Assembly: GCF_017348835.2 (NCBI RefSeq)
Contig: NZ_CP071375.1
Length of the DNA stretch: 64,000 nt
Reading direction: 5' to 3' (one strand)
From: Escherichia coli
GTDB lineage: Bacteria > Pseudomonadota > Gammaproteobacteria > Enterobacterales > Enterobacteriaceae
In this document: positions 6,001-9,000 of the stretch, one piece after another
Layout: every line of letters starts with the position of its first letter
How positions within the stretch are numbered: the first letter of the stretch is position 1
Made by a program: the position numbers

Positions 6001-9000
6001 GACGGATGTTACAAAAAATGCAGCGTATGGCGTTGAGATAGAAAGTCTGGTGCTGGAGATAAATGCACCGGCAGCATAATAAAAAAAGAGCCAGCGACTG
6101 ACCTGAAAGAAGACGCTGGCTAAAAGGCCTTATATGTTTGTAGAGACTTATTTTTCACAGACAGCAATGATGCCTGTCAATATATTATCAATATGCGGAT
6201 TGTTTCAGTTACAGATGCTTTATTAAGGAAAAAAACAGCCAGCACTGACTTTCGGTGGAGAGGTGCTGGCTCAGAAGGATAGTTGGATTTCACATGATAC
6301 TTATGCCTGGCGGTATATTTTCTGACAGACAGTGACGGGTGTTGTCAAGATATTGTGTCATTTATAACCTGAATCAGGGGGTGGCCGGAATGTTATCTGG
6401 CATTTTTAGCAGAGCCTGAATGCCATAATCACGGCTCCCGGAGTTGGCCGTCAGTGGGTGACACTGGCGGCTTTTTTGTTTTTCTTTACTTTCATTTTCT
6501 GTCGGCGGTGACGGAGACATACATCAGATGGAAAAAATCACAACAGGTGTGTCATACACCACGTCAGCGGTGGGGACGGGATACTGGTTACTGCAGCTGC
6601 TGGACAAAGTCTCTCCGTCCCAGTGGGTGGCAATAGGTGTGCTGGGAAGTCTGCTGTTTGGCCTGCTGACGTATCTGACTAACCTGTATTTCAAAATCAG
6701 AGAGGACCGTCGTAAGGTGGCGCGGGGAGAGTAGTCGATGAATAAACAATACGAACTGGTTGTAAAATGAATATTTCTAACTGAAAAAACGTTCCATGAG
6801 GTAAGAAAAGGTCACAGGCAATCAATAACAGGACGTGATGAAAGACCCTTGCATTTGTGCGCTTTCTCTTTAGATAGCAGCAGATACTGAAAATCTGAGT
6901 TGTCGGGGAGTCAGGGATACAGCTGTGCAAGAGTTGGTCATTGTGATTCCATTGAAATCCTGTATGCCATGAAGGGCAGGATTTTATGGCTACCTGAGCT
7001 TTGGTGATAGTAAGTTGAAAATTCGCATTTTTTGCTGACATGCGTAACGAGAATCCCATAAGCAGGGAGGACTTAATTCTTCATTAACCCATGCGTTGAT
7101 ATTATGTTTCAGCCGTTGAAGCATCAGCGGTGTTAATGTTGTGGTAATAATATCCAGCGTTTTATGTGAGATCTTACCGTAAGGGTCTGCAAGAATGCTG
7201 CTTGTTGCTTCGTTATTATCTGCCATCAGAAGAAGTAACTCTGATTTAACGTTTTCTGTCATTAGTTGTAAAAATCTTCTGCGCAAACTTTCTTTACTGT
7301 TCATTTATATGGCTTCATTTGTTGTAATCTGCTGCGTCTCAAGGGATATGTTTATGAGAGCGACCATGAGTGTTGGATTATATACCTAACATATCAAGGG
7401 ATTAGAAATCGATAAATCCCCATGAACGAAAAAATAAAATACGGCCTGTCGGCTGCCGTTCTGGCGCTGATTGGTGCAGGTGCTTCTGCGCCTGAAATCC
7501 TCGACCAGTTTCTGGATGAAAAGGAAGGTAACCACACCACGGCATACCGTGATGGTGCGGGGATCTGGACCATCTGCCGTGGTGCCATTCTGGTGGATGG
7601 TAAGCCTGTTATTCCTGGCATGAAGCTGTCAAAGGAAAAATGCGACCGGGTTAATGCCATCGAACGTGACAAGGCGCTGGCATGGGTGGAGAAAAACATC
7701 CGGGTGCCGCTGACCGAACCCCAGAAAGCGGGGATCGCGTCATTCTGTCCGTACAACATTGGCCCCGGTAAGTGCTTCCCGTCGACGTTTTATAAACGAA
7801 TTAATGCAGGCGATCGAAAAGGTGCCTGTGAGGCGATTCGCTGGTGGATTAAGGACGGTGGCAGAGACTGCCGTATCCGTTCAAATAATTGCTACGGTCA
7901 GGTCTCACGGCGTGACCAGGAGAGCGCGCTGGCGTGCTGGGACATCGACAGATAGCAGAATATTTTCCTGAAAAATGACGTTGGCCAACGCGGGTGGATA
8001 ACACGAAATCCTGAAAACTGGTAAAACCTAAGTGAATAAAAGTAAAAACCCCGTTTGTTGGCAGCAAGCGGGGTTTTGTGTTTTCTGACCTTGAGTAAGG
8101 CAAGGGAGAAATTATGGGTAGGGAGGTACTTTCCCTGTGAGGAAGTATAAAAGATTCTTTCTGAGGTTGTCCATTATGAAAGGCATTGAAGTGGAGACGC
8201 CAGCCAGTCTGGATTTAACAAGAGCGGCAGCTTTTGCCATTCGTATTGTGGCCATTGCTGTTCTGGTCTGGGCAATCCGTTGGTGGTGATATGAACCGTG
8301 TTCTGTGCGTGGTTATCATTGTCCTGCTGGTGGCCTGTGGTGCGCTTAGTCTGGGGCTGAATCATTACCGTGATCACGCCATCATCTACAAAGAGCAGCG
8401 CGATAAAAAAGCCAGTGAGCTGGAGCTGGCGAACGCGACAATTACTGATATGCAGGTACGCCAGCGTGATGTCGCTGCACTTGATGCCAGATACTCGAGG
8501 GAATTAGCCGATGCGAGAGCTGAAAATGAAACTCTGCGTGCTGATGTTGCCGCTGGTCGTAAGCGCCTGCGCATCAACGCCAACTGTCCAGGCTCCTTGC
8601 GTAAAGCCCCCATCACCTCCGGCGTGGATAATGCAACCGGTCCCCGACTGGCAGAAGCCGCTGAACGGGATTATTTCATCCTCAGAGAACGGCTGATGGC
8701 AATGCAGAAGCAACTGGAAGGAGCACAGGAATATATCCGTACCCAGTGTATACCGTGATGTTTTGTTATGAAGGTGTTACTGGTAACGTTAAGGTAATTT
8801 AACAAAGAGTCAGTTCCGGACTTTATAGTGTGCTCAGTTCATGGCCAAAAACGATTTCTGTGATAAATATTTTGAATATTATTTACAGGTAAATGGAGTG
8901 GGGCGCATGGATAGAAATATTACAATAGAGTATGAAGTATATGCCCGTATTGTATGGGCAGAGAAGGCAAAAACACGGTAATTCCGTGTGTTGCCATGAT

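Follow-up and report, generated by a model that had tools for sequence, protein, structure and literature searches.

Phage lambda transcribes its late operon from pR' under Q antitermination, and its bor gene adjoins Rz on the opposite strand; the products of bor and lom reside in the outer membrane and confer known phenotypes. In the Qin prophage of Escherichia coli K-12, the gene order is essQ-ydfR-rrrQ. YdfR, which belongs to Qin, has been reported to bind the N-terminal domain (catalytic half) of RNase E; it co-purifies with RNA and is possibly RNA-binding (PMC13232886). Here we describe a small gene, referred to below as the reverse gene, that lies between the holin gene S and the endolysin gene R of a prophage and is encoded on the opposite strand to both. 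It is located in a stretch of 64,000 nt from E. coli contig NZ_CP071375.1 (assembly GCF_017348835.2), which we call the window.

Like lambda bor and lom, the reverse gene is a small gene in the late region by the lysis genes, foreign in composition, patchily present and presumably transcribed in the lysogen from a promoter of its own. A bor gene is also annotated next to rz in Shiga toxin (Stx) 2 phage 86. Unlike Bor and Lom, the product of the window gene is soluble, basic and helical and lacks a signal peptide, and its promoter is only putative. The likeness to ydfR is one of location: ydfR occupies the same slot between members of the same holin and lysozyme families, and the window keeps its first ten codons. 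Unlike the reverse gene, ydfR is on the late strand, is in a Pfam family and is unrelated in sequence. A third comparison is with a forward gene that we call X (PHROG 1085), which is conserved beside the reverse gene, and convergent with it, in E. coli, Salmonella and metagenome contigs; the window holds a decayed piece of X. X differs in that it is not intact in the window and often occurs without the reverse gene.

The window corresponds to the late region of an E. coli prophage that is lambdoid and resembles Stx phages, and the reverse gene is a member of a catalogued but uncharacterized phage family in a known type of accessory slot. We consider it likely that the gene is a moron with its own promoter in a polymorphic S–R slot, and thus ordinary phage cargo that does not disrupt lysis. 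The novelty is modest, and consists of the conserved convergent module of X and the reverse gene, the survival of the reverse gene as an orphan, and the repeated occupation of this site by unrelated antisense genes.

The S–R spacer and its reverse gene

The lysis genes and the contents of the spacer between them are as follows.

6528–6734, plus strand: S, an S21-type (class II, pinholin-like) holin of 68 aa (Pfam Phage_holin_2_1, PF04971, E 1.3e-32; PHROG holin families), the left border of the slot
6738–6770, plus strand: start remnant of ydfR (DUF1327), MNKQYELVVK followed by TGA (blastn against YYZ-2008; tblastn with YdfR residues 1–12, 75% identity)
6814–6939, plus strand: decayed remnant of the C-terminal domain of X, collinear and stop-interrupted (profile hidden Markov model of X, 14.5 bits)
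6990–7304, minus strand: the reverse gene, 104 aa, intact, PHROG 1853, the longest open reading frame (ORF) of the spacer
7305–7383, minus strand: 5' leader of the reverse gene with its putative promoter region, from an alignment of related leaders
7377–7382, minus strand: a perfect TATAAT, candidate −10 element, just inside the cassette-specific DNA
7384–7421, plus strand: upstream region of R, 38 bp common to ydfR-type phages, with the translation start context of R inside it
7422–7955, plus strand: R, a signal-anchor-release (SAR)-type lysozyme of 177 aa (Pfam Phage_lysozyme, PF00959, E 7.6e-24; PHROG 7 endolysin), the right border of the slot

The alignments indicate that the spacer is composed, in order, of the ydfR start, the X remnant, the intact reverse gene, its leader and the shared 38 bp before R. 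The S, R, Rz and Rz1 genes are all intact in the window, and the N-terminus of R carries a hydrophobic SAR-like segment. The G+C content is 39% in the spacer and 38% in the reverse gene (37% at third codon positions), versus 53–54% in S, R and Rz (53–64% at third positions). DNA homology to the ydfR-type Stx phages YYZ-2008 and H-19B (blastn) runs from the holin to position 6773, stops, and resumes at 7384, which is just past the ydfR stop codon in YYZ-2008; the corresponding ydfR start in that phage reads MKKKYELVVKG...

In most relatives that bear the reverse gene, X separates it from the holin, and X and the reverse gene are convergent. X encodes 185–330 aa and has a Pfam domain only in fusions with an N-terminal YdfR domain; its C-terminal domain carries the invariant pattern GRCM..LQ.AAEI...PFK..W..PG..YLK. 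When the X profile was run on shuffled sequences, none of 1000 reached 13.1 bits, the maximum being 4.9. The X protein of phage 12E129 aligned to the window remnant by tblastn with 36% identity over 44 aa, across two stops. The AlphaFold model of X was too poor for interpretation (predicted local distance difference test, pLDDT, 58).

The length of the reverse ORF is by itself weak evidence of coding, being only mildly unusual: when the 687 bp spacer was shuffled 2000 times with its dinucleotide composition kept, an ORF of at least 104 aa appeared 69 times (3.5%). It is homology together with the pattern of substitution that makes the reverse ORF a gene. Residues 1–102 match profile positions 57–158 of the 159 in PHROG 1853 (E 3.5e-47). 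Full-length homologues of 34–79% identity, in E. coli and Salmonella prophages, hold the length at 104–106 aa, and the helix pattern of the protein is conserved down to 34% identity. Pairwise ratios of nonsynonymous to synonymous substitution (dN/dS) against five homologous loci were 0.13–0.39. Taken together, these comparisons indicate that the reverse ORF is a genuine gene under purifying selection. The family has few members, all of them in enterobacterial prophages: two very large protein sets yielded 16 and 15 homologue clusters, the 15 being representatives at 50% identity out of 1.84 billion proteins, and every named member is a 'hypothetical protein' of E. coli, Escherichia or Salmonella.

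Existing annotation places the start of the gene at 7262, giving a hypothetical protein of 90 aa (WP_000138558.1 in RefSeq/PGAP; ECs_1097 in Sakai). The true start is the ATG at 7304 rather than that at 7262, because the 14 additional codons (7262–7304) are conserved and evolve as coding sequence: between the window and locus L005, five of seven synonymous sites have changed there, versus one of 38 nonsynonymous sites. A second minus-strand ORF (120 aa, 6697–7059) was rejected as a gene. It is without a family match and runs across the X remnant into the last part of the holin gene, and its region has no DNA counterpart in the more distant related loci.

The reverse-gene protein is basic (pI 9.3) and hydrophilic (grand average of hydropathy, GRAVY, −0.33), with no transmembrane segment and no signal peptide. 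AlphaFold2, run on a 15-sequence alignment, predicted a five-helix bundle in which the helices are amphipathic (mean pLDDT 90.9, predicted template modelling score 0.81). Neither Pfam nor NCBIfam gave a match, including at relaxed thresholds (E up to 10) across 15 family members, and the YdfR/DUF1327 model (PF07041) likewise gave none at E up to 10. The PADLOC-DB v2 defence models matched neither the reverse gene nor X at E up to 0.1, and returned nothing meaningful for YdfR; the toxin and antitoxin families of Pfam and PADLOC matched neither the reverse gene nor X. Holin families in Pfam and PHROG gave no match for the reverse gene. A sequence-profile search of PDB returned designed helical proteins only (E 0.001 or worse), and Foldseek comparison of the model with BFVD and with PDB gave nothing informative.

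Three specific identities were rejected. A holin or antiholin is contradicted by the lack of both a transmembrane segment and a holin family match. YdfR/DUF1327 is unrelated in sequence, and the only trace of ydfR is the 10-codon start remnant on the plus strand. PerC/Pch (PF06069) resembles the reverse-gene product in that a 104 aa basic helical protein of this family is encoded beside the lysis cassette of the same prophage; however, there is no detectable similarity, with no Pfam match and an hhalign probability of 0.3% against the PchA of the window.

The preliminary description of this region had placed a 687 bp spacer with a 104 aa minus-strand ORF between holin and endolysin (6735–7421), which proved exact to the base. 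It had also assigned the ORF to no recognizable family, which holds for Pfam and NCBIfam and fails for PHROG, where the protein matches family 1853. The ORF is clearly conserved in related prophages, the opposite of the lack of conservation that had been named as a reason to discard it.

The S–R junction in related phages

The 30 best of 357 phage records matching S and R have approximately 400 bp between the two genes, occupied, where annotated, by ydfR or a hypothetical protein. Spacers in relatives range from 36 bp to ~1.3 kb, and those of complete Stx phage genomes from 0.4 to 1.3 kb. The following arrangements were found (related loci carry numbers prefixed with L).

YYZ-2008: ydfR only, with ~400 bp between S and R
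Stx2_95, L016 and L020: X or a ydfR::X fusion and no reverse gene; R begins 36 bp after
Stx2 phage 86: ydfR::X fusion and the reverse gene (gp05/gp06)
Stx2a phage 12E129, L005 and L010: X and the reverse gene
PhiR12_2 and L018/L019: forward cargo and an unrelated reverse gene (86 aa and 95 aa, respectively)

Because the site is routinely filled with differing genes, it is a polymorphic cargo slot and not the site of a fresh insertion. These comparisons indicate that the S–R junction of P21-type lysis cassettes in lambdoid (Stx-like) prophages is a polymorphic accessory-gene slot that is used on both strands. Since the same slot holds other genes in relatives, the reverse gene is dispensable for the phage cycle.

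The unrelated genes of 86 aa (L015 2643–2903, minus strand) and 95 aa (L018 2902–3189, minus strand) are also antisense and just upstream of R. They were considered as homologues and rejected, being unrelated to the window gene and to each other; the 'DUF1823' label of the 86 aa gene of PhiR12_2 was not reproduced by Pfam.

The view of the spacer as an unusual insertion splitting an adjacent gene pair is not supported by this comparison, as the junction is usually occupied in this type of cassette. A comparison with related lysis cassettes had been proposed alongside it; the spacer is non-lysis DNA and the contents of the slot vary. The accompanying suggestion that the spacing alters lysis-gene coupling is likewise not supported, since the 38 bp before R are common to ydfR-type Stx phages and complete Stx phages have longer spacers. 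Coupling among the lysis genes is kept despite the spacer: one antiterminated late transcript carries S, R and Rz/Rz1, and the upstream region of R is the one seen in phages with other cargo.

In a table of gene orientations, 80 IMG/VR loci, seven others and the window carry a reference gene. In all of these the reverse gene is on the strand opposite to R/Rz, or opposite to X if no lysis gene is in range; L073 has no neighbour to compare. The reverse gene is 117–160 bp from the start of R in most E. coli loci, and the block formed by R and the reverse gene is collinear, with ~80% identity, across lineages.

The convergent pair of X and the reverse gene persists at 34–42% identity in Salmonella and in metagenome contigs. 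The X partners in these distant loci are true homologues, with 37–40% identity over the C-terminal domain. In Salmonella locus L022, where S and R are adjacent or overlapping, the module lies upstream of the holin, and the same is true of a metagenome contig with a lambda-type holin. As X homologues stand beside even the distant reverse genes, the two form a conserved, mobile, convergent pair; their 3' ends overlap by 21–33 bp in L010 and L023. The reverse gene is found without X in at least three lineages, namely the window type, L074 (66% identity) and L080/L083 (57–58%).

Three IMG/VR prophage contigs (L069–L071) allowed selection after the loss of X to be assessed, as they share the X-less arrangement and the same stops in the remnant, yet have diverged from the window. 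Identity to the window was 96.5–97.8% for the reverse gene, 91.2–93.5% for the X remnant (divergence 6.5–8.8%), about 90% for the leader, 84–88% for R and 75–90% for S. Within the reverse gene, synonymous divergence was 0.076–0.106 and nonsynonymous divergence 0.008–0.016, a ratio of 0.11–0.15; the underlying counts are small (5–7 synonymous and 2–4 nonsynonymous changes), and all point in the same direction. The X remnant has diverged roughly as fast as the synonymous sites of the adjoining reverse gene. This pattern argues that the reverse gene is kept by purifying selection, and is useful alone, since X decayed.

Expression and possible function of the reverse gene

As the reverse gene faces the late operon, it would be expressible only from a promoter of its own, by the same logic as for lambda bor. 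We propose that it is transcribed from a promoter with the candidate −10 element TATAAT in its leader, that it is most likely on while the late operon is silent, in the lysogen, and that converging late transcription probably shuts it down after induction. The hexamer is conserved in L008 and L009 and in the lineages of 64–79% identity, with TACAAT in L005, and an exact TATAAT occurs within 160 nt upstream in all window-type loci except L035 and in all loci of 64–67% identity. The Shine-Dalgarno-like element is weak and purine-rich, GAAG at 9–12 nt before the ATG (GAGA or GAGG in relatives). The predicted fold of the window leader RNA was not significant (z-score −0.21).

Distant homologues (phage 86, 12E129, Salmonella L022, L023/L024, L084 and ~19 IMG/VR loci) have a different leader. 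Theirs contains an almost invariant palindrome, CCCG(C/T)CAG(C/T)G-loop-CACTGGCG with flanks TCAGCC...GGCTGA, located 45–75 nt upstream of the ATG (L003 3394–3417; L004 3398–3419; L022 2928–2951; L023 1336–1361; L024 921–946). It is conserved above the level of the coding sequence, is absent from the window and its lineage, and may be an operator, a 5' stem–loop or a module boundary. An Rfam search over window positions 5800–9800 and three related loci gave nothing at the spacer or at the leader hairpin/palindrome.

The reading of the reverse gene as a moron with its own promoter was raised in the preliminary description. The gene has turned out to be real and conserved, and a moron with its own promoter is its best reading, on the strength of its orientation, foreign composition, selection and conserved TATAAT hexamer. 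Several observations weigh against it. There is no acceptable −35 element at 16–18 bp from the TATAAT, the only candidate being a TTGATA 9 nt upstream, and a consensus promoter scan of the minus strand over 7305–7421 passed no site. No terminator-like site was found 3' of the gene on the minus strand (6735–6989); the closest candidate is weak and falls within the holin gene (6560–6546). Searches for expression data or literature on the reverse gene found none: papers on ydfR with holin and endolysin, and on Sp4/pchA, contained nothing on it, no paper was found naming ECs1097 or WP_000138558, and only YdfR has been studied. Finally, the spacer DNA had zero matches among 50,697 phage records, distant mode included; with no deposited phage genome carrying this exact allele, the allele is known only from prophages, some of them defective.

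The product would be a small, basic, soluble, cytoplasmic helical protein that acts by binding another macromolecule. As the only consistent association of the reverse gene is with X, we tentatively suggest, while regarding the idea as doubtful, that the protein binds or antagonizes the late X/YdfR-type protein of its conserved convergent neighbour. Such antagonism would guard the lysogen against leaky or incoming X/YdfR-type copies, and would account for the survival of the reverse gene as an orphan in a defective prophage. The RNase E report on YdfR points to a possible action of the forward cargo on host RNA metabolism at a late stage of infection; it holds nothing direct on the reverse gene. 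Our estimate is kept low because the two genes are not obligately paired: X is often found alone, and the reverse gene lacks X in at least three lineages.

A more explicit form of this relationship would make X a late harmful or host-takeover effector and the reverse gene its inhibitor, an orphan antidote kept against the X of superinfecting relatives, which would amount to protection from superinfection. The deep conservation of the convergent pair, its movement as a unit to a position upstream of S, the overlapping 3' ends, the continued selection after X decayed, and the presence of unrelated small reverse genes beside other forward cargo in the same place are all consistent with this explanation. 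However, X and ydfR::X fusions are common without any reverse gene (Stx2_95, L016 and L020), no PADLOC or Pfam toxin or antitoxin family was matched, and the model of X is too poor to help, so that we hold the explanation to be unlikely. The resemblance to toxin–antitoxin and effector–immunity systems is that of a two-gene module travelling together, whose small partner survives alone under selection; the differences are that the two genes are convergent and not co-transcribed, belong to no known family and are not obligately paired. A strict type II toxin–antitoxin reading was rejected: X is often alone, the partners are convergent instead of co-oriented, and neither has a toxin or antitoxin match in Pfam or PADLOC.

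A broader and rather improbable speculation is that X and the reverse gene form an unrecognized mobile two-gene module of a late effector and a lysogen-expressed antagonist, the latter silenced by convergent late transcription. If this were true, orphan antagonists (as in the window and ~12% of complete E. coli genomes) would be kept since they blunt X-bearing superinfecting phages. This would be a new kind of prophage-encoded immunity, with an accessory lysis-region protein as its target, and the unrelated reverse genes at the same position would suggest that 'late cargo plus antisense antidote' is a general design.

It is very unlikely that the protein is a lysis regulator that tunes the holin or the SAR endolysin, either as an antiholin cofactor or as a safeguard of lysogens against leaky lysis-gene expression. 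Such a role would suit the constant position of the gene in or beside the lysis cassette, close to the start of R in most cases, and the collinear block that it forms with R across lineages. Yet the gene is antisense to the late operon and so not co-expressed with S and R, its product is hydrophilic without a transmembrane segment, most related functional phages lack it and still lyse, and in Salmonella L022 and in L023 a holin or HNH gene lies between it and R.

It is hardly credible that the frame is a chance ORF or an untranslated cis-acting DNA or RNA element, conserved through a role in the late transcript or as antisense RNA, as the frequency of such ORFs in shuffles and the weak promoter and Shine-Dalgarno signals might suggest, since substitutions fall mainly at synonymous positions of this frame in all comparisons, both the length and the helix pattern of the protein are held to 34% identity with a confident AlphaFold model, and there is neither an Rfam match nor significant leader RNA structure.

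Prophage context and distribution

The other features of the late region are listed below; the names of upstream ORFs were borrowed from a near-identical O157:H7 locus.

424–1156: RusA and Q antiterminator ORFs
Between the Q region and the tRNA genes: a CPBP-protease-like ORF and a helix-turn-helix ORF
3490–3739, plus strand: three tRNA genes, with a CAU anticodon (Ile in RefSeq), Arg-UCG and Arg-UCU
4229–6079, plus strand: SASA/nanS-type esterase, 616 aa, a NanS-p-like sialate O-acetylesterase with DUF1737 and DUF6645 domains, upstream of the holin
8291–8758 and 8511–8696: Rz/Rz1
9224–9538, plus strand: PerC-family gene, 104 aa (Pfam PerC, E 3.8e-44), ~470 bp downstream of Rz

The position of tRNA genes between the Q region and an esterase gene is the typical Stx-phage late-region arrangement; in the window the tRNA genes (3490–3739) have this position, with no stx genes after them. 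NanS-p-like esterases are frequent Stx-phage cargo. In some genomes with an identical spacer, the esterase gene is interrupted by ISEc8, or the lysozyme gene by an IS3-family element. PerC-family activators are known virulence-regulator cargo of lambdoid prophages in enterohaemorrhagic E. coli (EHEC), and the PerC gene of the window has the same position and orientation relative to Rz as pchA (ECs_1091) in prophage Sp4 of strain Sakai.

The gap between R and Rz (7956–8290, 335 bp) contains no long ORF and a strong terminator-like hairpin (8045–8077, plus strand). In related phages this interval holds ant, an antirepressor gene, or small ORFs, and the gap looks like a second cargo slot, by now empty or decayed. 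The prophage small RNAs AsxR/AgvB and STnc100 were detected with Rfam in related loci (L003 7016–7270; L022 4532–5062), upstream of the esterase or lysis region; none was found in window positions 5800–9800.

Chromosomes of O157:H7 and other E. coli match the 1.5 kb surrounding the spacer with 100% identity. The 687 bp spacer was found in 630 of 5426 complete E. coli genomes, with nearly all copies at least 99% identical and at most three per genome. In O157 Sakai, the reverse gene is ECs_1097 of prophage Sp4, where the block pchA-Rz-R-ECs_1097-holin (L013 23366–26376) is inverted versus the rest of the prophage, with IS629 and ISEc8 at its flanks. The inverted, insertion sequence-flanked block means that the reverse gene persists in a rearranged, defective prophage.

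For lysis biology the locus is ordinary, and the spacer gives no reason to expect altered holin–endolysin coupling. The outcomes of this analysis are a corrected start for the reverse gene (104 instead of 90 aa), the S–R junction as a cargo slot, and a defined gene pair of X and the reverse gene. Roughly one complete E. coli genome in nine contains the reverse gene, O157:H7 and other EHEC serotypes among them, and the function of the gene would help to explain which genes decaying prophages keep.

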